Shown: positions 9,574 to 61,014 of the stretch, piece after piece
Layout of the letters: each line of letters starts with the position of its first letter
How positions within the stretch are numbered: the first letter of the stretch is position 1
NCBI GenBank assembly: GCA_028275105.1
Contig: JAQCNI010000008.1
Span: 764-64,763, forward strand
DNA length: 64,000 bases
Source: Halorubrum sp.
GTDB lineage: Archaea; Halobacteriota; Halobacteria; Halobacteriales; Haloferacaceae
Reading direction: 5' to 3'
Notes under the pieces: model-generated
The model's input: the letters and a program-made list of their open reading frames with translations, nothing else
What the model was told of the DNA's origin: nothing
Databases searched by the model: none
Position numbers and translations under genes: made by a program

Positions 9574-9636
9574 GTTGCTGATGGGGTTTCCGTTCGGTAC
9601 TGCCTGGAAATCTTGTGCGATCTATATTGTCAAATC

Positions 9637-13577: not shown

Positions 13578-14128
13578 GCGCCGACGACGTCGCCGACGAC
13601 GTTGATGGTGACGGTGCCGGCGGCGGCGGTGCCGAACCCGGCAACGGTCCCACCGAAGCCGATGAGTTCGACGACCGCCCGGGACTGTACGTCGAATCCA
13701 CGGTGATCATGACGACCGTCCGCGTCGTCGCACCGTTCGTTCTCACCTTCGCGCTATTCATCATGTTCCATGGCGCGGACTCGCCCGGCGGCGGCTTCCA
13801 GGGCGGGGTGATCGCGGGGTCGGTCGTGATGATGCTCGCGTTCGCGTACGGGATCGAATCCACGCGGCGGTGGATTGACGTCCGGGCCGTCGTGGCGCTG
13901 GCGGCCGGGGGGGTACTCGCTTTCGTCGGCATCGGCGTCGGGGCCATCGTCCTCGGCGGGCAGTTCCTCCAGTACACCGAGTACGAGCGGCTGCTCGACC
14001 ACGCCAGCAAGTACGGCATCGAACTGGTCGAACTGGGCATCGGCGCCATCGTCGCCAGCGTCGCGATCGGGCTCTTCTTCCTGCTCGCGGCCGGGTTCAC
14101 GCATGCCGTGGAGGGGGAGACGGCGTGA
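13574..14128 (+). CDS. mnhB: Mrp/Mnh antiporter subunit B
   Basis: HGADSPGGGFQGGVIAGS is the MnhB signature. ATGA overlap with the preceding gene. Confidence 0.8.
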   Translation: MSADDVADDVDGDGAGGGGAEPGNGPTEADEFDDRPGLYVESTVIMTTVRVVAPFVLTFALFIMFHGADSPGGGFQGGVIAGSVVMMLAFAYGIESTRRWIDVRAVVALAAGGVLAFVGIGVGAIVLGGQFLQYTEYERLLDHASKYGIELVELGIGAIVASVAIGLFFLLAAGFTHAVEGETA

Positions 14129-14490
14129 CGCTGGACCCGAGCCTGCTGACGACCCATTACAACTACTACGCGGTGATCGTCCTGCTCGGCATCGGCCTGT
14201 ACACTCTCATCGAGTCGAGCGACCTCGTGAAGAAGGTGATCGGGATGAACGTGTTCCAGACGGCCATCTTCCTCTTTTTCATCACGCTGGCGTACCGCAG
14301 CGGCGCCAACCCCCCGGTCGTGACGGACGGCGGCGGCCCGTACGTCAGCCCGTTGCCCCACGTACTCATTCTGACCGCCATCGTCGTCGGGGTGAGCCTG
14401 ACGGCCGTCGCGCTCGCGCTCGTCGTCCGGATCTACGCGGAGTACGGCACGTTCGACGAGGAGACCCTAAGGGAACTCTACCATGATTGA
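14125..14490 (+). CDS. mnhC: Mrp/Mnh antiporter subunit C (NuoK-like)
   Basis: 121 aa with 3 TM segments, GMNVFQTAIFLFFI and PLPHVLILTAIVV. Confidence 0.85.
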   Translation: MTLDPSLLTTHYNYYAVIVLLGIGLYTLIESSDLVKKVIGMNVFQTAIFLFFITLAYRSGANPPVVTDGGGPYVSPLPHVLILTAIVVGVSLTAVALALVVRIYAEYGTFDEETLRELYHD

Positions 14491-15958: not shown

Positions 15959-15983
15959 TGACCCGTTACCGAACTCCCCATCC

Positions 15984-19456: not shown

Positions 19457-19544
19457 TCGGGTAGTAGGGTCGTCTTCCGGGGGTCCGAAGTTCGTGCTGC
19501 GCTGCCGGTTCCCGCCGGCTTGGTGTACACTCCGCGGTCGCGAC

Positions 19545-46584: not shown

Positions 46585-47040
46585 TCAGCGGACGACGGTG
46601 ACCGGGACCGCCGCCCGACGGACGACTCCCTCCGCGACGCTTCCGAGCACGACGCGAGAGAGGCCGGTCCGGCCGCGGCTGGCAAGCGCGATGTGGTCGA
46701 ACGGCTCCGGGTCGGTCCCGTCCGCCCCAGTGCCGGAAGCGTCGCCGTCGGCAACGTCGAGGATCGTCGCGGCGGGACGACCGACTTCCAGCCGCGTGGC
46801 GATCTCGCGATCGAACCGGTCCGTCGCCTCGGAGAGAACCCGCTTGCCCCGCACTCTCGCGCTGTCGTACCACTGATCGACGGCGCCGGGGAACCCGCCC
46901 TCCGCACCGGTCGTCGACTCCGCCGGGTTGATCACGTGGAGGGCGGTCAGTTCGGCGTCGGGCCACTCCTCGGCCGCGAACCGGAGCGCCTCGGTCGCCT
47001 CCGCCGACCCGTCGACCGCCACGAGGATCCGTTTCGACAT
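46585..47040 (-). CDS. Universal stress protein (UspA family)
   Basis: ILVAVDGS..A..AL.FA and G.RGR.G..R..LGSVAE.V.R.A..PV.VV. Confidence 0.85.
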   Translation of the reverse strand: MSKRILVAVDGSAEATEALRFAAEEWPDAELTALHVINPAESTTGAEGGFPGAVDQWYDSARVRGKRVLSEATDRFDREIATRLEVGRPAATILDVADGDASGTGADGTDPEPFDHIALASRGRTGLSRVVLGSVAEGVVRRAAVPVTVVR

Positions 47041-47121
47041 GGGCGCCGATTCTCCGAGGGGTGACAAAAATCCGTCGTCGGGTCACCGGACGACTGCCCG
47101 GGGTGGCGGCGGCGACCCGGT

Positions 47122-49080
47122 TCAATCCCCGTGACGCGTGACGCACGTGGACAGGCCGACCAGCTCCACGGGCTCGGAGTTGTCCGGCGAGTAGACGACC
47201 ATCTGTCCCTGTTCCATGTACGGGACCTTGCCGGCGAGGCTCGTCGGAATGTTCACGCTCTTGATGGCGTCCTCGTCGCCGAGGTTCAACACCACCTTCG
47301 TGTTGACCTGCTTGAACACCGACTCGGCGACGTCCTGTGGGTCCTGCGTGATGAGAAACAGTCCGAGTCGCTCCTTGCGCCCCTGTTTGGCGGCCTCGGT
47401 GAACTTCCCGATCACCCTGTTCGCCTGAACCGTATCGGCGTCAGTCAGGAAGTTGTGTGCCTCGTCCATCCCGATCAGCAACGGGGTCTCCTTGATCCGG
47501 TCGCTTCCCGGGTCGTTCGACAGTTTGTCGTCGATGAGCAGCGTCGACGCCACAAGCACGAACATCTCCTTCTGGCGCGAGGAGGCGAGGTGATACGTCG
47601 GGATCACCGTCAGCCCGCCCGGTCGAACGAGCGTGTGATCGAGGTCCGTGATCGGTTTCGCGTCGCCGTCGAAGACCCCGCCGGGCACCGCCCGGACGCG
47701 ACGCATCACGGCCTCGAACGTCTTCTCGTGGACCCGACCGGTCTCGTCGAGCTCCGTTTTCAGCGCCGGGTCGTCGAGGAACGAGAGGAACTGCCGGTAC
47801 GTCCCCGAGTCGCCGTGGCCGTCGAAGAACCGGTTCAGCAGGGTGAGCAACCCGGAGTACTGGTTGTCGTTGAGGCCGCTCCCCGCGATGAGCCACGGCA
47901 TGTCGTACTCGTTCACCATCGAGAACGGGATCGTGAACTCGACCTGCTCGGCACGGTGGCCGTCGGCGGAGTACGTCGCGTTCGGCACGGTGGGCACGAG
48001 CGCGACCGTGTCCTCGTGGCCGCCATGGGCGATCCCCTCCCGTTCCAGCCGCCGTGCGGTCGCCGCGTCGAGCGCGGGGTTGTCGTCGTGCATCTGGGCG
48101 TACTCGTCCTGTGGGTCGAACTGGACGACGGCCATCCGCGCCTCGCGGCCGTCGTCCATCGGGTAGGTCCGGTCGGAGTCGAGATACTGCCGGAGGACGT
48201 TCTTCGAGGCGTGGGTCTTCCCCGACCCGGTCCCGCCGGCGACGAGGGTGTGTCTGAACGCGAGCGGATCGCCGTCATCGTAGTCGTCGGTGATCCGGTA
48301 GTCGACGGTCGGAGGCTCCGCGGCGGTCCGGACCGTCTCGCCGCCGACCGAGAGATGCCCCAGGAACACGCCCGTTTCGGGGATCTTCAGGCCCGTCTTG
48401 ATCTCCGCGTCGTCCGCGGCCGCCTCGACCACCGCGCCCGGTTTCGGCACGCGGTCGGTCATCCGGCGGCTGAGCCCGTCGCCGTCGGCGTACACGACGG
48501 ACATCGGCTCCAGTTCGGCCATGAACTTGTAGTCGCGTTCCGCGAAGTCGTCGCGGCGCATCTGCCGCCGGGCGTGGATCTCCGTTGCGTCGTCGGAGCG
48601 AAACTCCTGGGCGTACTCGAGGGCGGTGATCCGACAGAACAGCCGTTCCCCGTCCGGGTACGGAACGATGAGGTACTTCCCGAGTCGAACCGAGTCGCGG
48701 TTGTCGGTCGTCACGAACGCCCGCAACGTCGTGTCCTCCGCCTCCTCGGCGACCCGGAGCCCCTGCGAGACGGAGACGACGCCGAGCCCGGCGTCGCTTC
48801 CGGCCGCCTCGGCGTCGTACGGGGCGAACTCGGCGTCACCCTCGGGGGCGCGGTCGGCGGCGACCCCCGGGTCCGGATCGGCCTGCGTCGCCCGCCCGGC
48901 GCCGCCGTCCACGGCATCCGAACCGTCCGACGTGCCGACGTCACCCGTCCCGTCGACGTCGGCCGACTCACCCTCGTCCGGGTCGGCCGACTCACCCTCG
49001 TCCGGGTCGGCCGACTCACCCTCGTTCGGGTCGGCCGACCCCTCGTCGTCGGTGAACTCGCTGAAATCCTCCAGGGTCAT
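47122..49080 (-). CDS. HerA-like (DUF87/FtsK-HerA superfamily) ATPase with an acidic repeat N-terminus
   Basis: An N-terminal barrel-like region, then Walker A LVAGGTGSGKTH and Walker B LIGMDEAHNF. EGESADPD occurs three times near the N-terminus (24-bp DNA repeat, about 48958-49045). Confidence 0.75.
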   Translation of the reverse strand: MTLEDFSEFTDDEGSADPNEGESADPDEGESADPDEGESADVDGTGDVGTSDGSDAVDGGAGRATQADPDPGVAADRAPEGDAEFAPYDAEAAGSDAGLGVVSVSQGLRVAEEAEDTTLRAFVTTDNRDSVRLGKYLIVPYPDGERLFCRITALEYAQEFRSDDATEIHARRQMRRDDFAERDYKFMAELEPMSVVYADGDGLSRRMTDRVPKPGAVVEAAADDAEIKTGLKIPETGVFLGHLSVGGETVRTAAEPPTVDYRITDDYDDGDPLAFRHTLVAGGTGSGKTHASKNVLRQYLDSDRTYPMDDGREARMAVVQFDPQDEYAQMHDDNPALDAATARRLEREGIAHGGHEDTVALVPTVPNATYSADGHRAEQVEFTIPFSMVNEYDMPWLIAGSGLNDNQYSGLLTLLNRFFDGHGDSGTYRQFLSFLDDPALKTELDETGRVHEKTFEAVMRRVRAVPGGVFDGDAKPITDLDHTLVRPGGLTVIPTYHLASSRQKEMFVLVASTLLIDDKLSNDPGSDRIKETPLLIGMDEAHNFLTDADTVQANRVIGKFTEAAKQGRKERLGLFLITQDPQDVAESVFKQVNTKVVLNLGDEDAIKSVNIPTSLAGKVPYMEQGQMVVYSPDNSEPVELVGLSTCVTRHGD

Positions 49081-49172
49081 GCCCGATCCACCGGCCCCCG
49101 AGCCGAAAGCGTTTCCCCCCGTGCCACGGCCGACCGCGGACGGTTTTTAACTGGGGACTCCCTAACTGACTC

Positions 49173-49508
49173 ATGTTACTCGTTTGCGGTAGCGGCGGCG
49201 GGACGGACCTCACCGGCACGGTGTTCGAGCGGGGTGAGGACCCGCCGAGTTACAAGGGCGCTCCGGACGAGGACGCCCCGTACGTCTGGGTGTGCGACTC
49301 CTTCTATCAAGTCGAGAGCGGCGGGTCGGCGCTTCGCGTCGACGGCTCCGAGATCCGGGTCGCGTTCGAGGAGCCGATGCCGCGCGGGTTCGACACCAAG
49401 GACACGGCGGTGACGGCCGCCGAGGAGCACGTCCGGACGCAGTTCGCGCGGATCGGCGTCGATCCCGGAACCGTCGACGTCGAAGTGACGAAGGCGGATC
49501 CGGTCTGA
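49173..49508 (+). CDS. Hypothetical protein, divergent from the HerA-like gene
   Basis: 111 aa, acidic. No family recognised. Confidence 0.4.
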   Translation: MLLVCGSGGGTDLTGTVFERGEDPPSYKGAPDEDAPYVWVCDSFYQVESGGSALRVDGSEIRVAFEEPMPRGFDTKDTAVTAAEEHVRTQFARIGVDPGTVDVEVTKADPV

Positions 49509-49787
49509 GCGGGGGTTTGATCGGGCGTTGAACGGAGAGCAAAGGGTGGTGTCCGTCGGAAGAAGATTGACACGATCCCCGGGGGATCGGGATCGTTGCT
49601 CGACGGGCCCGCCGCTCACGGCGAGCGTCGGCCGCGTTCACGAGTTCGGGCAGGCGATACCGCCGAGCGGGGGCCAGTGCGTCGGGGCGACGCGCTCGGA
49701 GGGATACCGCGCTGCCCGGTGATCCGCTCGGGGATCGGCGATCAAAACGTTTTGACGGCGGTGCGACGGCCGTCCGACCGCCCGGTC

Positions 49788-50756
49788 TCAGCGTCGGACC
49801 GCTTCGGCCTCGGGTCGCGTCGGTAACGCCGCCATCGCTCCCTTGGCGGTCGTCGAACGCGCCGCCACGGCGTTGGCGAACGCCAGCGCCTCGTCGAGCG
49901 AGTCGCCGTCGGACAGCGCCGCGATCACGCCCGCGGTGAACGCGTCGCCCGCACCGGTCACGTCGACGGCGTCAACCGAGTACCCGCCGTGTTGGACGAC
50001 GATCGGCTCCGGCGTCCGATTCCACGGGGCCTCGGGCGTCACCCGCGCGAGGGCGCCGTCGGCCCCCCGAGTGATGACCGCCGTATGCGGGCCCCGTTCG
50101 CAGATGGTCCGCGCGAGGGCCGGCGCGTCGTCGTCGGTCGCGATCCCGTCGGCCAGGTCCGCGGCCACGAGATCCGTGGTCGTCGCCTTCACCACGTCCG
50201 CGAGGTCGAACGCGCGCCGACAGGTTCCGGCGAAGTCGACGCCGTCGAACAGTTCCGGACGGGCGTTCGGGTCGAACGAGACGACCGCGTCGTCGCCGGC
50301 CCGCGACATGAGGTCGAAGGTCGTCGTCCGGCTCGGGTCGGTCGCGAGGGCGACGCCACCGGGGTGAACCCAGCCGACGTCCGCGAGGATATCGTCGTCG
50401 ACGGTCCCCCGATCCATCCGGGTATCGGCGGTCCCATCCCGATAGAAACTGAACGCCCGGTCCGCATCGGGGGCATGGTTGAGGAACGCGAGCGTCGTGT
50501 CCGCGTCGGGATCCCGTTCGATCAGGGCCTCACGGACGCCGGCCTCGCTGAGAGTGTCGACCAGGTGATCGCCGAACGGGTCGTCGCCGACGCGGGTCCA
50601 AAACAGCGGAGGGTTGCCGAGTCGGGCGAGACCGACGGCGACGTTGGCGGGCGCACCGCCGGCGCGTCGGTGGAACGTCTCGACGTCGTCGAGCGTTCCG
50701 TGGCCGTCCGGAATGAAGTCAATGAGCGTCTCGCCGGTCACGAGGAGTCCGGTCAT
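49788..50756 (-). CDS. PfkB-family carbohydrate kinase (KDG kinase / fructokinase-like)
   Basis: GETLIDF, GGAPANVAVGLARLG and the C-terminal DVTGAGDAF motif. ATG at 50756, with an alternative at 50780. Confidence 0.8.
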   Translation of the reverse strand: MTGLLVTGETLIDFIPDGHGTLDDVETFHRRAGGAPANVAVGLARLGNPPLFWTRVGDDPFGDHLVDTLSEAGVREALIERDPDADTTLAFLNHAPDADRAFSFYRDGTADTRMDRGTVDDDILADVGWVHPGGVALATDPSRTTTFDLMSRAGDDAVVSFDPNARPELFDGVDFAGTCRRAFDLADVVKATTTDLVAADLADGIATDDDAPALARTICERGPHTAVITRGADGALARVTPEAPWNRTPEPIVVQHGGYSVDAVDVTGAGDAFTAGVIAALSDGDSLDEALAFANAVAARSTTAKGAMAALPTRPEAEAVRR

Positions 50757-51105
50757 GGATTCCCATCCGAACGGATCCATGGAAGACGTTGGGGTTCCCG
50801 GGCAGGGATCGTGCTCGCTCCGGACCCACGATCACTCCGTTCCGTCGTCGTCCCCGCAGACGCCGTGCGGGAGTCTCGTTGACTCCAAGAGCGATGGGAC
50901 GCGGAAGTTCCTGACGCCGTTCGAGCGCTGCCGCTGGGGAACCTACCCCCGGTATCACGCGCTGCTCGTCCTCGGCGACATCGATGGGTCGTTCGATCTC
51001 GTCGCGGAGCGGCGGCTTCCGGAAGGGAGGGCTGAACCGAATGCCTAGCCGCGATCCCGAGGGGGCGACTCGCCCGGCCTCAAACGGCCGACTACCACCA
51101 CCCGA

Positions 51106-51693
51106 TCACTCCGACCAGCCGGGCTGCGTGTCCCAGTCCGGAGCCGGAGCAAGCCAGTGTTCGTCGTTCCACCCGTCGGTGTCGTCCCGGAGGAAGGCGG
51201 TGTCCGCCGGGGTGTTCATGATCTCGAGTTGGAGCCCCCAAGACGTCGTAAAGTAGACGAACGTCTGTCCCGCCTCGGGTCCCTCCTCGGCGGTTCGCGG
51301 TTCGCCCTGAATCTCGACGCCGTCGGCGTCGCGGAGGTACTCCAGGGCCGCATCGATGTCGTCGACCTGAAAACAGAGGTGTGCCGCGCCGTTGTCGCTG
51401 TTCGTCGGAGTCCCTTCGCGCCGCTCCGGGTCGTCGTAGTCCAACAGCTCGACCATGGTGTTCGGTCCACAGCGGAGCTTCACGAGGCGCATCGTCGAGT
51501 CCGGATGGACGCCGAGGTTTCGCTCCATCCAGTCCTGCGTCGAATCGTCGATTGGCGGGGTCGTTTCGAACACCGTTTCACAGCCGAGAACGTCGACGAA
51601 GAACTCGTGAGCTTCGTCCAAGTCGGGAACGGAAATGCCGACGTGGTCGATGCTTCGAGCCGTGGGAATACCCGTGTGCGTGCTGTCGGACAT
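51106..51693 (-). CDS. VOC (glyoxalase/bleomycin-resistance/dioxygenase) family protein
   Basis: IDHVGISVPDLDEAHEFFVDVLG and AHLCFQVDDIDAALEYL. ATG at 51693. Confidence 0.75.
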   Translation of the reverse strand: MSDSTHTGIPTARSIDHVGISVPDLDEAHEFFVDVLGCETVFETTPPIDDSTQDWMERNLGVHPDSTMRLVKLRCGPNTMVELLDYDDPERREGTPTNSDNGAAHLCFQVDDIDAALEYLRDADGVEIQGEPRTAEEGPEAGQTFVYFTTSWGLQLEIMNTPADTAFLRDDTDGWNDEHWLAPAPDWDTQPGWSE

Positions 51694-52088
51694 CGGTTCG
51701 GACGTCGACGAACGGGCATAAACGTCTGGTGTTTGGAGAGGGGAGCGTCGTCGCGACGAGCGTCTTTCCACGCTCGCCGACGGGGGATTCGTTGACACGA
51801 GGACGGGAACCCACGGTGCGACCCTGTACCGACGGTCGGCGGGGTCGCTCGTCGTCGAACGGCCGGCGGACATCCTCTCGGAGGTTTCGATCGGCGGGCT
51901 CCGAGATCGGATCGCGGAGATGCGGGAACGGATCACGAAATACGACGGCAGTGTGTCGTTGCGTCACCGGAGGTGCCGGCGGTCGAACGAACTCCTCGAC
52001 GGGTCCGATGCCGACGGAGCCGAGCCCGATGAGTCCGAACCGGGACTTGTGCCGACGGTTTATATCGTTGAGACGTTGATGAGCGTGT

Positions 52089-52793
52089 ATGAGTGTTGTA
52101 TACGATTTCAGCGATCAGGTAGCCGTCGTCACTGGAAGTTGCGGAGCGCTTGGCAGTGCGGTCGCTACTGCGTTCGCTGATGCCGGGGCAACCGTCGCTG
52201 CCTGTGATATCGTCGACATCAACGCTGAAGAATCACTGCTCGAATCACGAGAGAACATCGCGTTTTATCAAGCGGACTTTACTGATAACGCCGTTGTCGC
52301 GGACACCATCGACCGAATCCTGAACGATCACGGGCGAATTGACTGTCTACTCAATGTTGCTGGGACGTGGCGTGGTGGCGACCCGGTTGAAGAGACCGAC
52401 GCTGACCTCTTCGAGATGTTGTTTGATGTTAATCTCAAGACGATGTTTCTTGCAACGAAACATGCGCTCCCCTCGCTTCAAGAGACGGAAGGCGCTATTG
52501 TGAGCGTCTCTGCGCGCTCCGGTACTGAGGGTGGAACTGGCGATGGACTGTACCGGGCGACGAAGGCGAGCGTCCGAATCATGACGGAGACGATCGCTGA
52601 GGAGAATCTTGGAACGGTAGAGGCGAACTGTGTCATGCCGAGCGTATTGGACACACCGATGAACCGTGAGATGATGACACCGAGCGATGAGTGGGTCGAT
52701 CCTGCTGATGTTGCCGAGGTGATCCTGTTCCTCTGTTCCGAAGCCGCATCAGTCACAAGCGGCGCGGCCGTCCCTGTCTACGGTGAAGCCTGA
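52089..52793 (+). CDS. SDR-family oxidoreductase
   Basis: VAVVTGSCGALGSAV (TGxxxGxG), NVAG and the Y...K catalytic pair (YRATK). Confidence 0.85.
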   Translation: MSVVYDFSDQVAVVTGSCGALGSAVATAFADAGATVAACDIVDINAEESLLESRENIAFYQADFTDNAVVADTIDRILNDHGRIDCLLNVAGTWRGGDPVEETDADLFEMLFDVNLKTMFLATKHALPSLQETEGAIVSVSARSGTEGGTGDGLYRATKASVRIMTETIAEENLGTVEANCVMPSVLDTPMNREMMTPSDEWVDPADVAEVILFLCSEAASVTSGAAVPVYGEA

Positions 52794-52807
52794 TCCCATA
52801 CACCGCG

Positions 52808-55675
52808 CTACCGGGTAATGGTCAGCGGTGATAGTTCGACCGTTTCGTCGTCGGCAGTATAGAAGATCTGTATCGAAATGTCCCGATTAGGGTATTCGTT
52901 CGCCACAACGTGGTAGTACACGCTGAGTTGCTTCCGGTATTCAGATTCAGCGTGACGGCCACGATCAGTTTTGTAGTCGATAATCTGAACCTGTTCCGGG
53001 GTAGTTACCAGTAGATCAATGATCCCGACGAGCGTAATCTGTGGCTCCAGATCAAGTGGCAAGATCGCTGTGATCTCCGGTTTAAGTGTACCATCGAGAG
53101 AATCAAGCAGCGTTTTGACGTGTTCTTGATCGCTACCGACGGGCGAAACGTCTTTTCTCCGAACGTAGTCTTCTGCGAACTGATGTAGTCGGTCTCCGAA
53201 CTCCGTTCCTCGTCCTTCGTCCACGTCGTCGTAGATACTGTCGTCCATAATCTCGTGGACGCTCAGTCGACGCGAACGGGAGCGTTCTGGAACCGTAACG
53301 GAGAACGCTTCATCGTCGACCTCTTCGAGTTCTCGCGCGGTAACGGATGGGTCAATCTCCGTTGAATCAACGGATAATTCTGTGAAGAATGGACTTGGAT
53401 TGTCTCCAGCGGTGAAGAACAAGTGTCGCTTCGCTCGTGTGACGGCGACGTAGAAGAGTCGGCGCTCTTCATCGTAGTCGGATGGAAGACAACCTGTTAG
53501 AAGATCGTACGACCAATGCTTGTACACGTACGGGCGTCCGTTCGAGTCATCATATACTGAGCGTTGTCTGAGACCGATCGGCTCCTGATACTGGATTGTC
53601 CCTGATGATGGCTTTCCGTAGTGGGGAAAGGCACGACGATTCATGTTTGCGCAGAAGACGATTGGATACTCTAGTCCCTTCGCGCCGTGGATCGTCTGTA
53701 GCGTCACGGAGTCATCACCTGGACTCGAATCGATCTCAACCGTCGACCCGGCTTCGAGAGTTGATTCAATGTACGCGATCGCTTCGCTCCAAGTCGAAAG
53801 CGTTGCGTCGTACATCCCGGTGAGTTCCCGAAGCAGGCCATTTGCATACGCCCCATCGTAGCCGTATTCATCAAAGACGGTTCGAGCGAACCCACCGAGC
53901 GTTTCACACTCACGGAGTTCGTCTCGAAACGCGATCATCGACTCGGGATACGCGTCCGTTTTGAGGGTCTCCTTGGCTCGTGGAAGCGTGTATCCAGCAT
54001 CTTCCAGTACTGCTGCCCATCCCCGTTTCTCATTGGCTTCACAGATTCGGAGCCACGCGAGGAGTAGCTTTGCTTGGTCGGTGTCGAACAGTTCGATTCC
54101 ACCTTCGTAGGCGATCGGAATCCCGTATTCCTGGGCCGTTTCGAGGAGTTCTCTGGCGAACGATCGCGTCCGTGTGAAGACGGCGATGTCGTCGTAGGAT
54201 GGCTTTCCAAGCCGTTCGCGTTCGGCAGCCGCTTTCTCGGAAGAAGACATCTCGTCGGTCGTTTTCGGCTCGTCTCGAACCTCAACGCTATACGTTTCGT
54301 TGTCGACGACGTGCTGTATCCGATCGAGAATTACTTCGGGTTCATCCTCGTGTGTCACCGCCTCGGTCCGGCTGTTATCGACGTGATTTGTCGCTTTTAG
54401 CGGCGTGAGTTCCTTCTCAATCGCGTCCTCATCGATCGATTCACTGCTAGTAGCTGGAACGGTCAGCGTTTCCGTGGCCAGCGACAGGATTGACTCCGTC
54501 GATCGGTAATTCAACTGTAGCGGGATCTCTTCGATGTCGTCGACTGGATACGTGATCCTGTCTTCGCCGCGGTTCAGTTCGGCTTTGTAGCGGGCGATTC
54601 GTTCGTCGAACCGTTGAATGTTTTCGACGGTGGTATACTGGAACCCGTAGATGCTCTGCTTCCAGTCCCCGACGACACAGATGTTGTCTCGCTCGGAGAG
54701 GAGCAGCGTGAGCTTGAACTGGAGTTCATTAGTATCTTGGAACTCGTCGACCATCACGTACTGATGTTGTACTCCCTTGCGGACGCCCGGATTTTCACAC
54801 AGCATCACGAACGCAAACGCGAGCATGAGGCCCTGTGTGAGGTAATTGCGTTCCAGTGTATGCTGTAGATACTCGAAGTACACGTCGTGGACGAACTCAA
54901 ACAGCTCTTCGCGGTCTTCATCGAATGCTTGCTCGACCGGGTCGGCGTGTACCTGCGGGTAGCCGACGATCTCGTCTGCAGTCGGTGCATCGGGTGCGTA
55001 TTCCGTGTTCTCCCAACCACTTACTGACGAGCGGGCATCGGATTGTATTGGACCGTTTGCGCCATCGTTCGGCTGATTCTGGCGCTCGAAAAGTTCCATG
55101 AACTCGTCCCGGTTTCCGTCGAGTGCCGCACCGGTCTCTCGATACCAGCCATCTCGGTGTGGGATCACGCCCTTTGCAGCGAGTTCAGCGACCAACGATC
55201 GAAGCGAACTGGGCGTGTCGATGGCAGCAAACAACTGTTCGTACTCCGGGTGTTGGTCCTCGAACCGCGAAGCAAATGTTTTGAACAGCGTTCGTTCCCG
55301 AAGTTCGTCCTCGATCAGATCCAGTGACTGTGGGATCTGGTCATTGATCCCGAGGTCGCTCGGTGTCTCGTGCCCGTATCGTCGGAGCAGTTGATAACAG
55401 TAGCCGTGGAACGTGCTGATCGGAGCGTCCTGTAGTTGGACGGGATCATAGGGAGATTGCTGAGCAATGCGATCTGCCATTTCCTCAGCCGCATTCCGGG
55501 TGAACGTGACTAACAGAATGTCATCCGGTTCGATTCCCGGCTGTTCGAGGATATTCGCGTACCGATGTGTGATGGTGAACGTTTTCCCGGTTCCAGCGCC
55601 GGCATTAACGAGATAGATCCCATCGGTACTATTGATCAACTTTTGCTGATCGGGATTGGGTGAAATCCTAGTCAT
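52808..55675 (-). CDS. UvrD/PcrA/AddA-like SF1 helicase fused to a C-terminal PD-(D/E)XK (RecB-type) nuclease
   Basis: Motifs: I NAGAGTGKT, Ia LLVTFTRNAAEEM, II VMVDEFQDTN, III VVGDWKQSIYGF, IV LNYRS, V TIHGAKGLEYPIVF, VI LFYVAVTRAKRHL. The nuclease part has GDRLHQFAE, GIIDLL, IIDYKTD and QLSVYYHV. Confidence 0.85.
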   Translation of the reverse strand: MTRISPNPDQQKLINSTDGIYLVNAGAGTGKTFTITHRYANILEQPGIEPDDILLVTFTRNAAEEMADRIAQQSPYDPVQLQDAPISTFHGYCYQLLRRYGHETPSDLGINDQIPQSLDLIEDELRERTLFKTFASRFEDQHPEYEQLFAAIDTPSSLRSLVAELAAKGVIPHRDGWYRETGAALDGNRDEFMELFERQNQPNDGANGPIQSDARSSVSGWENTEYAPDAPTADEIVGYPQVHADPVEQAFDEDREELFEFVHDVYFEYLQHTLERNYLTQGLMLAFAFVMLCENPGVRKGVQHQYVMVDEFQDTNELQFKLTLLLSERDNICVVGDWKQSIYGFQYTTVENIQRFDERIARYKAELNRGEDRITYPVDDIEEIPLQLNYRSTESILSLATETLTVPATSSESIDEDAIEKELTPLKATNHVDNSRTEAVTHEDEPEVILDRIQHVVDNETYSVEVRDEPKTTDEMSSSEKAAAERERLGKPSYDDIAVFTRTRSFARELLETAQEYGIPIAYEGGIELFDTDQAKLLLAWLRICEANEKRGWAAVLEDAGYTLPRAKETLKTDAYPESMIAFRDELRECETLGGFARTVFDEYGYDGAYANGLLRELTGMYDATLSTWSEAIAYIESTLEAGSTVEIDSSPGDDSVTLQTIHGAKGLEYPIVFCANMNRRAFPHYGKPSSGTIQYQEPIGLRQRSVYDDSNGRPYVYKHWSYDLLTGCLPSDYDEERRLFYVAVTRAKRHLFFTAGDNPSPFFTELSVDSTEIDPSVTARELEEVDDEAFSVTVPERSRSRRLSVHEIMDDSIYDDVDEGRGTEFGDRLHQFAEDYVRRKDVSPVGSDQEHVKTLLDSLDGTLKPEITAILPLDLEPQITLVGIIDLLVTTPEQVQIIDYKTDRGRHAESEYRKQLSVYYHVVANEYPNRDISIQIFYTADDETVELSPLTITR

Positions 55676-58431
55676 CGCTCTCGGTTTATCAGGATACAGT
55701 CGCGGTGAGTAACTCGATCCCAGTTCGGTCCATCGTCCCGATACGCGACCGGGAATCGGCTCGTTCGGTACTCGTTTAGTGCATCGAGTTGCTCGTCGAC
55801 GAACGCTTCGAAGGCCTCGAGATCGGATTCGAGCACGTAGCCGGTCGGTACGTCGTCAAGGTCGTCGATGACCATTTCACAGCCATCTCGAACGTACTTG
55901 TATTCCCCAACTCGTTCTTGCGTGTATTCGATGAACCGCTCAGTCACCAGATCGCGCTGATCTGGATCCTCACCGGCCCGTGGGAGCGCGTTGGCCTCGA
56001 AGAAGTCTCGATATGCGTCGTAGCCGAGCGACTGTAGGGCTTTACAACGATTGTTCGAATCGGCGTAGTCTGTCACCGTCTCGAACGTGTCCCGGCTGGC
56101 AACGAATTCATCAAACGTCGCCGGGACGTAGGTTATCGTCGTCACGAGATCAGCGGGATCAGGGGGTGTTCCTGCGAGGGCTTGTTCAATGTCGTGAAGC
56201 AGGTGAACGAAGTGTATCTCAAGGCGTTGGTCAGGGTGTTCTTCTCTGTGCTTTGCCAGGTAGGTGAGTACCTGAAAGTCGGGATACTCATCGACTGGAT
56301 CGATCGAGGCGGCATCGAGAATATCCGAAGCGTCGTTCTTGCGGCCGGTCTTGTAGTCCACGACCGACGTTTCATTTTGGAGCAGATCCACGTAGCCGTG
56401 AACCCCGATCGAGGGGGATGCAAACCACCGTTCAATGAGTGGCGAGTCAATTTCGACGCCGAGTTCGGTTGCGAGTTCATTCTCGCGGTCTCGATGATCA
56501 TACGTCCCGTGCGACGCTGGTTCCGCCGGGTTTTCGTCGAGGTACGCCATAATCGCATCTAAACCGACTTCGAGATGCGTGCGCTGGATGGATCGCTTGG
56601 CATCTCCGAGATACGGATCCAGTCGCTCGCACATCGCATCAAGCGCGTCTTGGCGTCGTCCCACCAAGACCGAGGGGTCACAAACATGGATCTCCGCTGC
56701 TTCATGGAGAACCGTACCTCGAACCATCGGGAGTGACTCGGGAGATTTGACGAGCCGGTCGAAATACGCGTCTCTTGGGGCGTTAACAAGCGATTTTAAT
56801 CGTGATTGACTGATCGTTGTCTTCGGCGTCGTTGATGCCTCGTCTGCCGCTGGGGAAGCGAACGGGTATGTCGGCGTCCCGGTCGTGTGCCCGCCGTGAC
56901 GCTCGTGGGGGAGATCGTCAAACCTTTCAAACGAATCATCAAGGAGCCGACGGAGATACACGCAGGGGGGTATATCATCTCCGGCCTGTGTTTCTTGTAC
57001 GAAGTAGTACCGCTGGTCGCCGTTTTGAAGCAGTCGTTCGAACCGTGCGACATCAGCTTCGAGAAACTCCGCTGGATCAACCCACGGGTAATCCGGTGGC
57101 GTTCGCGCCCACTCCGGGCCAAGACCGACGTAAAACACGATCGGCCTGTCAACGTACGCTGTCGAGGTGGCTCCCGTCAAGAGGACGCCGTCTCGATCGT
57201 TGGTATCCGTTGGTACGGTGAATGCATTCAGGTAATACTCGAAGTGGGTGACACGATCCTCGGTGACTGCTTCATCCAACAGTCCGAGAGCGTCAAGTTC
57301 TCGGCGAAGGTCCGTGAGCTGGGTATCGGCTGTCGCCTCGTAGACCGACAGGCTGTCACGGAAGGTCCCATTCCTGACGGTCTCTCGAAATTCATCGTAG
57401 CGACCCAACTGCTCAGAAGCGAGTGAATCGACCCGCCTTTTATCCAGTTCTCGGGGAATGTCGATTCCGGCCGTCGTGAGCACGGGACGGATTTCGGAGA
57501 GCCGCTGATTTGAGCCGGTAAACGTCGTTTCCAACAGGCGTAGTAGGCCTCGTACGTCCTCGTCTGCTTCGAATCCCGGGCCGCCACTGTATGGAATCCC
57601 TTCCGCTTCAAGTACTGATTCGATGAGTGCGCTATACAGGCTTCCCTCGGCGAGAACGATGCCGAATTGCTCCGCTGTATCGGCATCGATCTGTTCAATG
57701 ATGGTCTTAACAATCGATGTTGCCGATGGAAAGATTCGAAGTTCCGGGAACGAGGTCTGGGCGTCGGTTAGTGACGAGTACGTCTCATACTCGGTCGGCG
57801 GGGGTAGCATTTCCTGATCGAGTCTCGACAGTTGTTGTTCATCGACGACAGCAACATCCTGGTCTGCAGGGATCTTCGTCCGGTCGGCGGCGAGATAGCT
57901 GCTGTCCAGTTTGTCCAACAGCGCTACAACCGTCCGTGTGGCTGGCGTGTCGAACTCCGAGTAGTCGAGGATTGCTTCACGGTCACCGGTTGCGGTCCAG
58001 CAATCGATCGAAAGTTCGAGCGATCTGACAGCCTGTTTCCATGAGAGATCCGTTTGTTCGATCACCTCGAAAAACATCGGCCGGATGTCATCAGGGAACA
58101 TCTCTTGGGTGGCATAACTGCGAGGCGTCGCAGACAACCGGCCAATCCGTGGAGTCTGCACGCGGTTATCGAGGGCGAGGGAAAGCGGTGCATCAGTAGT
58201 GAGAACAATATCGTGATCTGTAACCGACGAATAGAGGTGATCGATTGAGCGCGCTTCACGTAATGGCACGTTCGGAACACTCACCGGACCGTCTTGAAGA
58301 TAACTCCGCGGTCGACTCGAAAATACACTCACAATAGATTCCGGATTACGCTCATCTGTAGCAACGAATACCCGGCATAGGATAGTCTCCGTTCCGTCAG
58401 CGAGAGCGTCTATCGCCGGCGAGTTCAGCAC
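55672..58431 (-). CDS. AddB-like partner: degenerate helicase-like N-terminal region (no Walker A) plus a C-terminal PD-(D/E)XK nuclease
   Basis: ISQSRLKSLVNAPRDAYF, GTVLHEAAE, GYVDLL, VVDYKTG and QVLTYLAK make up a RecB-family nuclease core. VAVVDEQQ and GIPYSGG recall helicase remnants. The stop overlaps the AddA-like ATG (ATGA at 55672-55675). GTG start at 58431. Confidence 0.65.
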   Translation of the reverse strand: MLNSPAIDALADGTETILCRVFVATDERNPESIVSVFSSRPRSYLQDGPVSVPNVPLREARSIDHLYSSVTDHDIVLTTDAPLSLALDNRVQTPRIGRLSATPRSYATQEMFPDDIRPMFFEVIEQTDLSWKQAVRSLELSIDCWTATGDREAILDYSEFDTPATRTVVALLDKLDSSYLAADRTKIPADQDVAVVDEQQLSRLDQEMLPPPTEYETYSSLTDAQTSFPELRIFPSATSIVKTIIEQIDADTAEQFGIVLAEGSLYSALIESVLEAEGIPYSGGPGFEADEDVRGLLRLLETTFTGSNQRLSEIRPVLTTAGIDIPRELDKRRVDSLASEQLGRYDEFRETVRNGTFRDSLSVYEATADTQLTDLRRELDALGLLDEAVTEDRVTHFEYYLNAFTVPTDTNDRDGVLLTGATSTAYVDRPIVFYVGLGPEWARTPPDYPWVDPAEFLEADVARFERLLQNGDQRYYFVQETQAGDDIPPCVYLRRLLDDSFERFDDLPHERHGGHTTGTPTYPFASPAADEASTTPKTTISQSRLKSLVNAPRDAYFDRLVKSPESLPMVRGTVLHEAAEIHVCDPSVLVGRRQDALDAMCERLDPYLGDAKRSIQRTHLEVGLDAIMAYLDENPAEPASHGTYDHRDRENELATELGVEIDSPLIERWFASPSIGVHGYVDLLQNETSVVDYKTGRKNDASDILDAASIDPVDEYPDFQVLTYLAKHREEHPDQRLEIHFVHLLHDIEQALAGTPPDPADLVTTITYVPATFDEFVASRDTFETVTDYADSNNRCKALQSLGYDAYRDFFEANALPRAGEDPDQRDLVTERFIEYTQERVGEYKYVRDGCEMVIDDLDDVPTGYVLESDLEAFEAFVDEQLDALNEYRTSRFPVAYRDDGPNWDRVTHRDCILINRER

Positions 58432-58552
58432 GGATCAGGAGCAAGTACTCACGTCTACAGATGAGCGTACGGAAATACATGGATGTGGGTACGGGGTTCT
58501 GTCTGGTAACTGGCTCGGTGAATATTGGATTACACAGGCGAAAAATCCGCTA

Positions 58553-58663
58553 CTACGGCTTACCGCGGGCAACCATCCGACGCTTTTCCTTTTCCTCTTC
58601 ACTGCTGTCATTTGGGCTTGCTTCTGACCGCTCACCAAACCGGTCGGAGATTATCTTCGTCAT
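58553..58663 (-). CDS. Candidate leaderless micro-ORF (36 aa) upstream of the AddB-like gene
   Basis: MTKIISDRFGERSEASPNDSSEEEKEKRRMVARGKP, not in the ORF track. The AT-rich block tatatatttaat (58691-58702) lies about 30 nt upstream of ATG 58663, which is the spacing expected for a haloarchaeal leaderless transcript. No homology evidence. Confidence 0.25.
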   Translation of the reverse strand: MTKIISDRFGERSEASPNDSSEEEKEKRRMVARGKP

Positions 58664-58707
58664 GTCCACCTGAACGTACAAGTTACACGCGTATATATTT
58701 AATTGTT

Positions 58708-58746
58708 GACACGTGCGCGTATGGGCGTTTCACGCGCTCTCACGTG
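58708..58746. promoter_or_regulatory. Imperfect inverted repeat acacgtgcgcgt-N11-acgcgctctcacgtgt in the divergent control region
   Basis: The arms at 58708-58719 and 58731-58746 are complementary apart from a 2-nt bulge. The repeat lies between the minus-strand helicase-nuclease operon and the plus-strand zinc-ribbon gene. Confidence 0.4.
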
Positions 58747-58842
58747 TGAATGCGCCCTTACGCGGTCGCCCGCGTGCGTGCTGGTGTTGTTAGGGCTATG
58801 GAATAGAACCAAGCCGAGCGAACCCCACAGACGAACGAACAC

Positions 58843-59184
58843 ATGGACTGTCCCATTTGCGGCGCGATGGTTGGCGAGTCAAATTATCCGAATCAGGTGT
58901 GCGACGAGTGCGACCGGCAAGCGGTGAATGAGAATGGTGACGAGCCGTGGCATGGGTGGCCGCCCGGTGAAGAGCCGGAGTCAGAAGACGGGACGATTCA
59001 CATGGCTCCCGACCGAGGTGAGAATCCTGTGTTCATTGACGGCGAGAAGTGCTGGCGGAGATACCGGTTCGGGGGTTGGGTAACGATGTTAGACAAGCAT
59101 GACTGTGAATCGCTCGAAGAGTTCTACCGAGAACACGATATAATCGCAGGATGTGACGGGCCCGGATGCGCCGACCGAATGTGA
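58843..59184 (+). CDS. Zinc-ribbon protein (hypothetical)
   Basis: MDCPICG...VCDECD is two CxxC pairs. 113 aa. No family recognised. Confidence 0.5.
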   Translation: MDCPICGAMVGESNYPNQVCDECDRQAVNENGDEPWHGWPPGEEPESEDGTIHMAPDRGENPVFIDGEKCWRRYRFGGWVTMLDKHDCESLEEFYREHDIIAGCDGPGCADRM

Positions 59185-59189
59185 GTGAA

Positions 59190-59235
59190 AGTAGATTTCC
59201 CCCGAAACCGCATGAATGCGGCGGGGCTATCTACT
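59190..59235 (+). terminator. Extended imperfect hairpin downstream of the zinc-ribbon gene
   Basis: Nested pairs agtagat/atctact, cccc/gggg and ccgcat/atgcgg between 59190 and 59235. A role as terminator or small RNA is inferred only. Confidence 0.3.
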
Positions 59236-59257
59236 TCAGGAAACTGCGGTAACGAAG

Positions 59258-59332
59258 TGGGTCGGGGCGGATTCGAACCGCCGGCCTGCTCCGTGTGAAG
59301 GAGCCGTCATAACCGGACTAGACCACCGACCC
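59258..59332 (-). tRNA. tRNA-Val (anticodon CAC)
   Basis: The reverse complement folds manually: acceptor gggtcgg/ccgaccc, anticodon stem gctcc/ggagc with loop ttcacac, T arm ggcgg-ttcgaat-ccgcc. 75 nt. Confidence 0.85.
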
Positions 59333-59496
59333 GGACACGACATATTTTCCGACGTCAACTCTTAAGCGTTGCTGTGTGGCCCGAATTCGACCCCGGAGAA
59401 CGCGGGCCGTTCCGCGACGAACCGCCGGAATCAACCGTCAGCAACCCGCAGCCAACGCGAGACGGGATCCGGCGGTCGGTCCACGCTCCGATACTA

Positions 59497-59775
59497 CTGC
59501 GCTTCAGCTCCTTCGTCCCGACCGCGGTACGCCGCGATCCGTTCACGAGCCGACGTCACCGCCTCGCGGGCCTCGCCCTCGGCGCGCTCCTCAAGTTCCT
59601 TGAGGTCGGCCTGAAGCGCCTCCAGTCGCGAGGGCTCGGGCTCCTCCTCGGGTTCGTCGCCGACGAGCTTTGCGACCCGGTCCTCGAGCGGCTCGAGCTA
59701 CTCTTTGATCCCCGCTTTGGCGTGTTCGGCGGCTCGGCCGAGGTAGTACCGTGCGTCCTCGAAGTGTTTACTCAT
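59497..59775 (-). pseudogene. Small conserved-looking ORF interrupted by an in-frame TAG (codon 26 of 93)
   Basis: MSKHFEDARYYLGRAAEHAKAGIKE-TAG-LEPLEDRVAKLVGDEPEEEPEPSRLEALQADLKELEERAEGEAREAVTSARERIAAYRGRDEGAEAQ-TAG. Both parts share one frame (59698-59700 is cta on the plus strand). Confidence 0.5.
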
Positions 59776-59836
59776 ACTTGTCCTTTGGCGAAGGACAAAT
59801 ATAATCCTTGTGGGGTCGTCGTGCGAGCCGGTCCCC

Positions 59837-60370
59837 TCAGTACGACGGCGAATCCGCGGATTCACCGTCGCGCGCGTTGGCGACCCGCCCGAGCGTGAAC
59901 AGGAGGTCCGAGAGGCGGTTGAGATAGGTGACGACCGCCCCGTTGATCGGCTCCGACGCCGCGAGTTCGACGGTCCGCCGCTCCGCACGGCGAACCACCG
60001 TCCGCGCGTGATGGAGCGCCGCACCGCTCCTGCCGCCTCCCGGCAACACGAACGACCGCAACGGTTCGAGTTCCTCGTCAAACCCGTCGATACGCTCCTC
60101 CAGTTCGGCCGTGTGTGCCGGTTCGACGCTCGGATCGTCCGGGTCCGGGTCGGGGTTCGCGAGGTCGGCCTGAACGATGTGGAGATGGTTCTGGATCGTG
60201 GCGAGGAGGTCGTCGACGTCGTCGTAGCCGGTCGGCCGGACCGTTCCGATCAGCGCGTTCGCCTCGTCGACGGTGCCGTACGCCTCGATCCGGAGGCTGG
60301 ACTTCGACACTCGGCTGGTATTACCGAGGTCCGTCCGTCCCTCGTCGCCGCGGCCGGTGTAGATGGTCAT
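59837..60370 (-). CDS. ATP:cob(I)alamin adenosyltransferase (PduO type)
   Basis: MTIYTGRGDEGRTDL, NHLHIVQADLA and FVLPGG...AALHHARTVVRRAER. Confidence 0.85.
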   Translation of the reverse strand: MTIYTGRGDEGRTDLGNTSRVSKSSLRIEAYGTVDEANALIGTVRPTGYDDVDDLLATIQNHLHIVQADLANPDPDPDDPSVEPAHTAELEERIDGFDEELEPLRSFVLPGGGRSGAALHHARTVVRRAERRTVELAASEPINGAVVTYLNRLSDLLFTLGRVANARDGESADSPSY

Positions 60371-60606
60371 GCGAGCGTCCGGTCGACGTATGCGAGGATG
60401 TTCGCGCTCTCGGACATGGTCACGCCGCGCGCCTCGTCGATCAGGACGGGGACGCCGCGTTGCCCGCTCACGCGCTTGACCGCGTCGCGATCGGAGTGGA
60501 GCGCGTCGACCCACTCGGTCTCGTACTCGATCCCGGCGTCGGCGAGCGCATCGTGGACTTTCTCGCACCACGGACACCCGTCCAAGGCGTACAGTCGGAC
60601 TGACAT
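60367..60606 (-). CDS. Glutaredoxin-like protein
   Basis: LYALDGCPWCEKV (CPWC) and GQRGVPVL. Its stop overlaps the adenosyltransferase ATG. Confidence 0.75.
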   Translation of the reverse strand: MSVRLYALDGCPWCEKVHDALADAGIEYETEWVDALHSDRDAVKRVSGQRGVPVLIDEARGVTMSESANILAYVDRTLA

Positions 60607-60762
60607 GGATCGATCGTCGGCGTCCGCGGTCAAGAATGTACGTGTCTCAACGGATGGGTGAAGACGAGAGCGGGGCGTCACGGGGTCACGACTACGACGG
60701 ACCGAGTTGATCCGACGGACCAAGAAAATCCAGCGGGACGGGAGGATCCGGCGGACTCCGTT

Positions 60763-61014
60763 TCAGTACAACAGCGCGTCGTCGTTCTCGATCATGTACA
60801 GCCCCCGAGCGGCGATGTTGACGGCGTGGTCGCCGACCCGCTCGAGGTCACGGATCGGTACCAACAGCCGGGAGACGTTCCGCATCGTCCCCTCGACGCC
60901 GCCGGCGTCGCCGAGATTCTCACTCTCGATGAGGTCGCGGACGACGAGCTCGCTCATGTAGAGGACGTCGTCGCGGAGCCCCTCTAGTTTCGCCTGATAC
61001 CGTTCGCGTGGCAT
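60763..61014 (-). CDS. Short PhoU-domain protein (single repeat; possibly truncated)
   Basis: The N-terminal YQAKLEGLRDDVLYMSELV and the C-terminal DLERVGDHAVNIA are PhoU-like, but the protein is only 83 aa. Confidence 0.5.
   Translation of the reverse strand: MPRERYQAKLEGLRDDVLYMSELVVRDLIESENLGDAGGVEGTMRNVSRLLVPIRDLERVGDHAVNIAARGLYMIENDDALLY

Follow-up and report, generated by a model that had tools for sequence, protein, structure and literature searches.

How did some 7 kb of low-G+C DNA come to lie beside the 3′ end of a tRNA-Val(CAC) gene in a haloarchaeal genome, and what does it carry? The block in question is part of a 64-kb stretch of Halorubrum sp. contig JAQCNI010000008.1 (hereafter, the window), and its cargo includes an operon, addB-addA, encoding an AddAB-like pair of proteins. 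A sequence-only reading had described it as an acquired island at the tRNA-Val 3′ end, either degraded or mobilised in some other way. Our analysis leads in the same direction: the segment is probably a horizontally acquired, now immobile, mosaic genomic island, located at a hypervariable locus downstream of tRNA-Val(CAC) in Halorubrum or a close relative of this genus. The composition of the block, an empty site in a relative, the lack of synteny, the lack of a tRNA repeat and the duplication of the tRNA core in a sister population all agree with this interpretation. Thus, acquisition at a tRNA-linked site was upheld, whereas the direct contact between the island and the tRNA was not, given that a short stub of other DNA lies between the two.

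A foreign block at a variable tRNA locus

The 7098-bp block (Table 1) is compositionally foreign. Its G+C content is 0.5496, against a mean of 0.6795 (standard deviation 0.0091, minimum 0.657) for 180 windows of the same size taken elsewhere in the 64 kb, which amounts to a z of -14.3. In 1-kb windows, G+C is 0.53-0.57 across 52-59 kb and 0.61-0.74 in the rest of the window, and at a resolution of 200 nt, the values inside the block range from 0.48 to 0.605 against an outside median of 0.68, with the drop starting at ~52.0-52.1 kb and the recovery coming at ~59.2-59.4 kb. The raw tetranucleotide distance to the rest of the window reaches its maximum, with z = 10-11, over the island. Codon usage is shifted as well: G+C at third codon positions (GC3) is 0.59-0.64 in the four island genes versus 0.81-0.91 in six flanking genes, and the codon adaptation index, calculated with a host reference, is 0.35-0.40 versus 0.61-0.74. 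A fall in G+C and a shift in codon usage had been noticed in the sequence-only reading, and both hold in the profiles of G+C, tetranucleotides and codon adaptation, which reveal a strong difference from the host: G+C goes down from ~0.68 to ~0.55 between 52.0 and 59.2 kb, and both GC3 and codon adaptation of the island genes are far below those of the flanks. Of the limits proposed there, the left one is accurate to within 3 nt (52042/52043, at most 3 nt from 52040), whereas the right one has to be moved from the tRNA to 59140/59141, because a 116-bp stub of other ancestry intervenes. The composition-normalised tetranucleotide signature of the island shows but a small shift (z about -1.4), as if the donor, far from being exotic, had itself a signature of haloarchaeal type.

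Judged by its flanking genes, the window belongs in or near Halorubrum: the PfkB and the PduO-type adenosyltransferase are, respectively, 73-76% and 81-84% identical to those of many Halorubrum species, and there are closer metagenomic relatives, with 87% (PfkB) and 92-94% (PduO) identity. The relatives compared are species-level ones, with 84-92% nucleotide identity in the flanks. In one of these, L023 (PduO 94% identical), the site is empty: genes for PhoU, glutaredoxin, PduO and DUF7553 are followed by tRNA-Val(CAC) (2767-2841), 87 bp, and a glyoxalase gene, the same gene that flanks the island in the window. In blastn alignments, window 59258-60955 corresponds to L023 2841-1202 and window 50944-51757 to L023 3716-2929, with 7.5 kb of the window (51758-59257) in place of the 87 bp; the G+C content of L023 is flat, at ~0.68, with no dip.

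Other relatives carry other DNA at this position. Six contigs of a sister population, L017-L022 (PduO 92% identical), share the right flank and the tRNA with the window but hold a different low-G+C cargo (G+C 0.47-0.58). This cargo (~11158-15000) encodes a Fic-domain protein, two hypothetical proteins and a helix-turn-helix (HTH) protein, and a 97-bp mini-insert lies between the tRNA and a duplicated 23-nt core. Halorubrum aquaticum has a PAS/response-regulator gene at the tRNA-Val position. In L014 (PfkB 87% identical), the DUF7342 (HTH) gene is intact and, along with a gene for a TumE-family toxin (112-1206), adjoins the glyoxalase gene on its upstream side; the contig ends beyond TumE. Given that L014 contains the intact DUF7342-TumE arrangement and the window only a DUF7342 pseudogene, a toxin-antitoxin-like pair might formerly have occupied the locus. 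Altogether, the comparison of presence and absence at the tRNA yielded four different states downstream of the same gene, including an empty site in L023 and other cargo in L017-L022 and H. aquaticum, rather than a syntenic, vertically inherited segment. Such varied content after tRNA-Val among species-level relatives marks a hypervariable locus.

Junctions, attachment core and the route of arrival

Both junctions look like scars inside truncated genes. On the left, window 51771-52042 aligns by blastn with the middle of the L014 DUF7342 gene (L014 736-1016) at 80% identity, and the match ends at 52042; in tblastn, the remnant is 67% identical to L014 at the amino acid level and contains three indels, of 1, 3 and 5 nt. 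Thus, the low-G+C DNA starts at the broken end of a decaying host-type gene. On the right, the junction at 59140/59141 falls within the gene for a zinc-ribbon protein, which has lost its last codons and native stop and is fused to the stub. Metagenomic relatives of this protein are ~100 aa long and end in EEFYEAHGMM followed by the stop, whereas the window copy ends in EEFYREHD-IIAGCDGPGCADRM, and the DNA homology of 16 metagenome zinc-ribbon loci to the window ends at 59075-59144. Because the sequence switches to stub DNA at 59141, the open reading frame (ORF), without its native stop, reads through 14 foreign codons (IIAGCDGPGCADRM and a stop).

The stub itself has a counterpart in the sister population. 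Window 59141-59281 aligns with L017 11469-11329 at 90% identity (blastn), and the stub proper is ~90% identical to L017 11469-11353, the DNA that comes after the duplicated tRNA core in L017-L022; it is a relic of an earlier or different integrated element. The cargo of L017 meets the shared stub at the same nucleotide as the cargo of the window. Behind this coincidence could lie a junction inherited from a common ancestor, which recombination has used again, or else a recombination site of defined position.

As the sequence-only reading had it, the tRNA-Val(CAC) gene is on the minus strand, with its 3′ end toward the island. The last 23 nt of this gene, 59258-59280, CGGTTCGAATCCGCCCCGACCCA, form an attachment-type core, of which each of the six L017-L022 contigs has a further, exact copy at a distance of 97 bp downstream from the tRNA, whereas the window and L023 have a single copy. 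This duplication implies that tRNA-Val(CAC) acts as an attachment site in this lineage, the sister population using its end as the attachment core. In the 64 kb, the tRNA-Val 3′ end was not found a second time with up to 5 mismatches in 23 nt allowed; likewise, the search for a partial repeat (at most 3, then at most 5 mismatches; shared k-mers of 11-14 nt) detected none at the left edge or elsewhere, in agreement with the earlier failure to see one. An integrase, also reported missing before, was sought among the ORFs and Pfam matches of 52043-59256 and is indeed lacking; excisionase, replication, conjugation and virion genes were not found in the block, its terminal direct or inverted repeats are chance-level matches only, and among the Rfam families, the tRNA alone was detected.

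Similar signs of attachment accompany relatives of the addAB operon elsewhere. In a Salinarchaeum metagenome-assembled genome, the last 15 nt of tRNA-Glu(CTC) are repeated 134 bp from the tRNA and 46 bp past the addA stop codon, so that the layout (tRNA, short spacer, core repeat, cargo) matches that of L017-L022. In Halohasta litorea, the low-G+C island that includes addAB is at least 17 kb long and extends to tRNA-Glu(TTC), directly next to which lies an integrase; this island also carries a second integrase, a Dam methylase gene and MazEF. Taken together with L017-L022, these cases indicate that site-specific integration at tRNA 3′ ends is active in these lineages, and the window keeps the residue of such integration events, not a functional element. 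We propose that one or more elements once integrated site-specifically at tRNA-Val and that later deletions or recombination would have taken out the genes for mobility and introduced or reshuffled the cargo seen now, the source of which would be the pool of lower-G+C plasmid and island genes in other haloarchaea.

This scenario has close parallels. In the pan-genome of Halorubrum ezzemoulense, atypical islands are located near tRNAs, and different islands ("homeocassettes") occur with the same core genes on either side (PMC11078007); the island described here resembles them in atypical composition, tRNA neighbourhood, patchy presence and varied cargo between the same flanks. The use of a tRNA 3′ segment as the att core, as in the sister population, is shared with archaeal tyrosine-recombinase integrative elements, as these are described in the excerpt of PMC8371274 used here. 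Unlike such tRNA-linked islands and integrative elements, the window copy lacks an integrase, a distal att site and mobility genes, ends in gene-internal scars, and is parted from the tRNA by the 116-bp relic.

Several considerations weigh against the proposed history. The link of this particular block to integration through the tRNA core is one that we infer from sequence; the stub separates the block from the tRNA, and both junctions resemble scars of illegitimate or homologous recombination. The left flank of the island is itself a rearrangement zone when set beside Halorubrum proper: H. aquaticum and window 37.1-46.3 kb are collinear, but the segment that follows, with Usp, HerA-like (DUF87), DUF7113 and PfkB genes (46589-50757), is inverted relative to both H. 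aquaticum and Halorubrum sp. 48-1-W. The luciferase-like gene that precedes PfkB in these two genomes is absent from the window. Furthermore, with species-level relatives rather than strains at hand, the order of events is not reconstructable, L023 could have lost the island rather than never had it, and the window comes from a 72.5-kb contig whose reads are not inspectable.

Among the alternatives, one concerns the route. The block might have come by homologous recombination in conserved flanks, from a related haloarchaeal carrier after cell fusion or mating, with the cargo swapped between the stub beside the tRNA and the DUF7342/glyoxalase side; we regard this as possible but, on balance, unlikely. 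Such an exchange would account for junctions that fall not at att sites but within sequence that is host-like or shared, for the other cargo of the sister population joining the stub at the same nucleotide, and for the lack of an integrase and a distal core in the block, and it fits the enrichment of tRNAs near island insertion points in Halorubrum, where different islands are lodged between the same core genes (PMC11078007). However, none of the collections searched yielded a donor with the order SDR-addA-addB-zinc-ribbon (SDR, short-chain dehydrogenase/reductase), the truncation of a gene at each junction favours illegitimate events over clean allelic exchange, and the duplication of the 23-nt core shows that site-specific integration does occur at tRNA-Val. 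The homologous and site-specific routes are not mutually exclusive.

Much less credible is the notion that the segment is native, vertically inherited DNA with a locally low G+C content or a chimera made in assembly. In its favour, the tetranucleotide signature, once normalised for composition, is still that of haloarchaea, and the source contig is not checkable against reads. Nevertheless, the site is empty in L023, the phylogeny and distribution of addAB do not follow taxonomy, and the shift in codon usage is common to all four island genes. A chimera would require two false joins that lead back to DNA lying side by side in a relative, and the junctions bear biological scars, namely, an in-frame fusion and a decayed pseudogene. 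Finally, that we are looking at an integrative element or provirus that is intact and still mobile, as the location beside a tRNA 3′ end and the atypical composition might suggest, is the most improbable reading of all, given the missing integrase, excisionase, replication, conjugation and virion genes, the absence of a distal att copy, of terminal repeats and of matches in phage records or IMG/VR, and the truncation of genes at both junctions.

Table 1. Features of the island and its borders, in window coordinates
Feature	Coordinates	Strand	Description
DUF7342 (HTH) pseudogene remnant	51764..52045	+	Codons 62-158 of 204; G+C 0.67; its end marks the left junction
Low-G+C foreign block	52043..59140	.	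Recognised by composition and codon usage; missing from the empty-site relative L023
Short-chain dehydrogenase/reductase (SDR)	52089..52793	+	234 aa; GC3 0.59; Pfam adh_short 4e-38
AddA-like subunit	52808..55675	-	955 aa; predicted UvrD/PcrA-type superfamily 1 (SF1) helicase with C-terminal RecB-family nuclease
AddB-like subunit	55672..58269	-	~865 aa; predicted SF1-like scaffold without motor, with intact RecB-family nuclease; probable GTG start 58269
Divergent intergenic spacer addB/zinc-ribbon	58270..58842	.	G+C 0.53
Zinc-ribbon ORF	58843..59184	+	113 aa; chimeric 3′ end: family sequence to ~59140, then last 14 codons and stop from the stub
116-bp stub	59141..59256	.	G+C 0.55; directly 3′ of the tRNA; imperfect hairpin inside
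tRNA-Val(CAC)	59257..59332	-	ARAGORN; Rfam 63.8 bits; core search

An AddAB-like gene pair in a mosaic cargo

The contents of the island are those named in the sequence-only reading: an SDR, an "AddA" with UvrD and PD-(D/E)XK domains, a PD-(D/E)XK "AddB" and a zinc-ribbon ORF. A micro-ORF candidate that had been listed with them did not survive, as none of the 18 six-frame peptides of 58261-58842 matched any related locus and the DNA was not conserved either. The block is a mosaic of at least three cassettes, namely, the SDR gene, the addB-addA operon and the zinc-ribbon gene. In the ten loci with the closest AddA, which belong to unrelated families, DNA homology (71-86% nucleotide identity) is limited to window 52818-58306, that is, to the addB-addA operon and almost nothing else, and the zinc-ribbon loci match the window at 58800-59144 only. 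The boundaries of both cassettes run through the spacer between them: its first ~37 nt (to 58306) belong with the addB cassette and its last 43 nt (from 58800) with the zinc-ribbon cassette, and the middle ~490 bp have no match in related loci. Upstream of addB, the unconserved part of the spacer contains a perfect 15-nt inverted repeat, 58347-58361 (TACGCTCATCTGTAG) and 58455-58469 (CTACAGATGAGCGTA), whose arms enclose a 93-nt loop. The SDR gene has no DNA homology to any of the ten addAB loci and is not linked to addAB in any other locus; the best plasmid relatives of its product are haloarchaeal, with 53-54% identity, and no NCBIfam model matched it at the cut-off. The zinc-ribbon protein matched nothing in Pfam, PHROG or PADLOC, and its homologues come from haloarchaeal plasmids and low-G+C patches only, with none in IMG/VR. 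The zinc-ribbon domain is also the N-terminal part of much longer proteins (L028 4965-6626, on a Natronorubrum aibiense plasmid, and L039 from ~9995), one of which is annotated as a macro-domain protein, adjoins an IS1595 transposase and lies near a BREX gene.

The operon has spread widely. The closest AddA clade (74-90% amino acid identity) comprises Salinarchaeum, Natrinema, Haloterrigena, Natronorubrum and Halohasta and is always found in DNA of ~0.53-0.60 G+C, and in a neighbour-joining tree of AddA, which does not follow taxonomy, Halorubrum sequences appear in three separate places. Among the plasmids and megaplasmids of haloarchaea, 42 contain addAB DNA and 35 the AddB-like partner, which is present in, among others, Haloferax lucentense, H. 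larsenii, Halogeometricum borinquense and strain DL31; where plasmid annotation was examined, addA and addB are neighbours, and the pair is also found beside tRNA-Glu genes, in the Salinarchaeum and Halohasta litorea islands described above. The neighbourhood of the operon is not conserved but differs in every genome examined. It includes the Hachiman gene hamA, AAA ATPases, an insertion sequence (IS) and an integrase on the plasmid of Haloferax lucentense, nos genes in Halogeometricum borinquense, and ExoVII and CRISPR-Cas genes on the plasmid of Halosegnis marinus. That a xenologous pair had taken the place of a native addAB in a conserved location was considered and rejected, because neighbourhoods differ in every genome and L023 has nothing at the site. 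The search for viral carriers yielded no blastn match to the pair in phage records and no AddA relative in IMG/VR, and for the stub, the core-stub junction and the 23-nt core, no exact match in IMG/VR.

What kind of enzyme does the operon encode? AddA matches the Pfam families UvrD-helicase (9e-54), UvrD_C and PDDEXK_1 and retains every SF1 motif checked (GAGTGKT, DEFQD, GDWKQSIY and VAVTRA) along with the RecB-type nuclease motifs GIIDL, IIDYKT and QLSVY; its sequence matches in PDB are PcrA, UvrD, AddA (3u44_A) and AdnB. The partner, with a start codon set from the alignment of homologues and the codon at this position, matches only PDDEXK_1 in Pfam and has no sequence match in PDB or NCBIfam. 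Its AlphaFold model, built with 91 diverse homologues, has a pLDDT of 93.2 and a pTM of 0.84, and the top five places in the Foldseek search with this model all go to the AddB chain of the Bacillus complex (E about 1e-12; query-based TM-score 0.45-0.49), with AdnA, UvrD and RecC next in line. The nuclease motifs GYVDL, VVDYKT and QVLTY are present, and G622, D625, D635, K637, Q663 and Y667 are invariant across the family (91 members). Conversely, there is no Walker A or B motif and no GK[ST] in the protein, and across the family, there is no conserved CxxC-type cysteine cluster, the sole family-level "CPR" cysteine being an alanine in the window protein. The stop codon of addB overlaps the start codon of addA (ATGA, 55672-55675), and the gene order and overlap are the same in all related loci and plasmids. 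The AddB-like family accounts for 337 representative clusters among 1.84 billion, nearly always of ~860 aa, and extends to the methanogen Methanococcus maripaludis (WP_011976415.1, 22% identity).

Altogether, the pair has the AddAB architecture, with one predicted motor and two predicted nucleases. The likeness to AddAB of Bacillus subtilis (PDB 3U44, 3U4Q, 4CEH-4CEJ) includes the addB-addA order with overlapping genes, an AddA that combines an SF1 UvrD-type motor with a RecB nuclease, and an AddB that combines a helicase-like, non-motor scaffold with a RecB nuclease, the AddB chains being the best structural matches. Bacillus AddB (3U44/4CEH) contains an iron-sulphur (Fe-S) cluster of four cysteines bracketing the nuclease domain as well as a Walker A motif. 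By contrast, the island partner is ~300 aa shorter, lacks the Walker A motif and the four-cysteine Fe-S module, and shows no similarity to AddB detectable at the sequence level (PDB, NCBIfam); moreover, the host is an archaeon, in which the two genes are an accessory pair borne by plasmids or islands. The processing of DNA ends by a heteromeric SF1 helicase-nuclease is also the business of mycobacterial AdnAB and Escherichia coli RecBCD; after AddB, the fold of the partner is best matched by AdnA and RecC, and AddA has AdnB among its sequence matches. However, AdnAB has two motor-competent subunits, unlike the island pair, in which the partner lacks the Walker A and B motifs, and RecBCD needs RecD and has a RecC without an active nuclease, whereas the island operon has no third gene and the nuclease motifs of the partner are intact.

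Three points tell against equating the pair with AddAB. AddA scores far below the NCBIfam cut-offs for AddA (161.8 bits versus 707.65 for addA_Gpos and 142.5 versus 860.75 for addA_alphas); the AddB-like protein lacks the Fe-S cysteines and the Walker A motif of Bacillus AddB; and a Chi-type site, the heterodimer and the enzymatic activity of the pair are hypothetical. Without the Fe-S cluster and the AddB Walker A motif, and below all equivalog cut-offs, the pair fits the description of a divergent archaeal branch, presumably working in the manner of AddAB, better than that of an orthologue. Most likely, by analogy with bacterial AddAB, the predicted heterodimer loads on double-stranded DNA ends and unwinds them with the AddA motor, each nuclease cutting one strand. 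If so, its task would be the resection of breaks for recombination, to which the degradation of linear DNA entering the cell could be added.

The balance between these two activities is the subject of another rival view, under which the pair mainly serves in antivirus and antiplasmid defence, destroying incoming linear or foreign DNA, rather than as a repair enzyme; this we consider conceivable but doubtful. A defence role would explain why the pair travels on plasmids and islands. Indeed, plasmids, low-G+C islands and sites next to tRNAs or integrases carry it time and again, with neighbours that include hamA, an IS and an integrase (Haloferax lucentense) and CRISPR-Cas (Halosegnis plasmid), and bacterial RecBCD and AddAB also restrict phage. 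In the excerpt of Hudaiberdiev et al. (2017, PMC5704561) on which we draw, UvrD-Cas4-like fusions of bacteria and mesophilic archaea, either stand-alone or linked to restriction-modification or Dcm/Vsr genes, are argued to be components of defence systems. Going by this excerpt, these fusions resemble the island AddA in joining a UvrD helicase to a pfam12705 nuclease and in their non-conserved, often defence-like contexts, but differ in that the island-type AddA always comes with an AddB-like partner of its own, to which it is translationally coupled and of which the excerpt makes no mention. Against a primary defence role, PADLOC produced only generic UvrD-type matches for AddA (GajB and DRT helicase models) and none for the AddB-like protein, the SDR or the zinc-ribbon protein; some contexts are purely metabolic, such as the nos genes in Halogeometricum; and no virus or provirus contig with the pair was found in phage records or IMG/VR. 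Gabija and other catalogued defence systems were considered and rejected, as there is no GajA partner and no specific PADLOC model matches both genes. Given that defence and repair coexist in bacterial AddAB and RecBCD, the defence view is a matter of emphasis rather than an exclusive alternative, and a role in repair and recombination is not separable from restriction of foreign linear DNA on the evidence presented here.

Speculating further, haloarchaea and some methanogens might possess an Fe-S-free AddAB branch that spreads by way of plasmids and tRNA-linked islands as a self-contained, two-gene mobile cassette, with the tRNA-Val locus as a hotspot of cassette exchange where the cargo is joined at 59140/59141 by a site-specific mechanism acting in trans. 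We rate this conjunction of claims as a long shot.

Other features of the window and implications

Outside the island, the window contains an intergenic repeat family, at 476-1425 and 9631-9972, that consists of 51-nt tandem units at 476-628, a 154-nt direct repeat (686-839 / 9700-9853, 76%), a 144-nt inverted repeat (1014-1157 / 9824-9967, 95% complementarity) bracketing ~8.7 kb, and a 124-nt inverted repeat (590-713 / 1302-1425, 89%). The same family is present in intergenic DNA of H. aquaticum (L012, ~19.1-19.5 kb) and Halorubrum sp. 48-1-W (L015, ~19.5-19.7 kb) and may be an element resembling miniature inverted-repeat transposable elements or the marker of an invertible segment. In addition, the composition-normalised tetranucleotide signature is off over 14000-19500 (correlation z = -3.6), where G+C is normal, at 0.69; AT skew is strongly negative over 12-20 kb, and three consecutive plus-strand ORFs (491, 560 and 596 aa) fill 14483-19456.

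The island itself is a textbook case, a decayed tRNA-linked island in a genus known for such islands, and it shows base by base how such islands become immobile mosaics. The added value of the present analysis is in the exact junctions, the empty site, the att duplication in the sister population and the recognition of the cargo as a mobile archaeal AddAB-type module. According to a 2026 preprint on CRISPR adaptation in Haloferax, RecBCD and AddAB "are not present in archaea", and direct homologues are missing from Haloferax volcanii (10.64898/2026.05.08.723854). The literature that we searched, with incomplete coverage that leaves novelty unproven, contains no description of an AddAB-type heterodimer from archaea. 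Despite the statement in the preprint, the AddAB-like pair is widespread in Halobacteria, on chromosomes and at least 35 plasmids, and an Fe-S-free archaeal AddAB branch, if borne out, would contradict the common notion that archaea lack both AddAB and RecBCD. If active, the pair would bear on the resection of DNA ends, the fate of incoming linear DNA and the acquisition of CRISPR spacers in archaea, and given that carriers are found in commonly cultured genera, these roles are testable.

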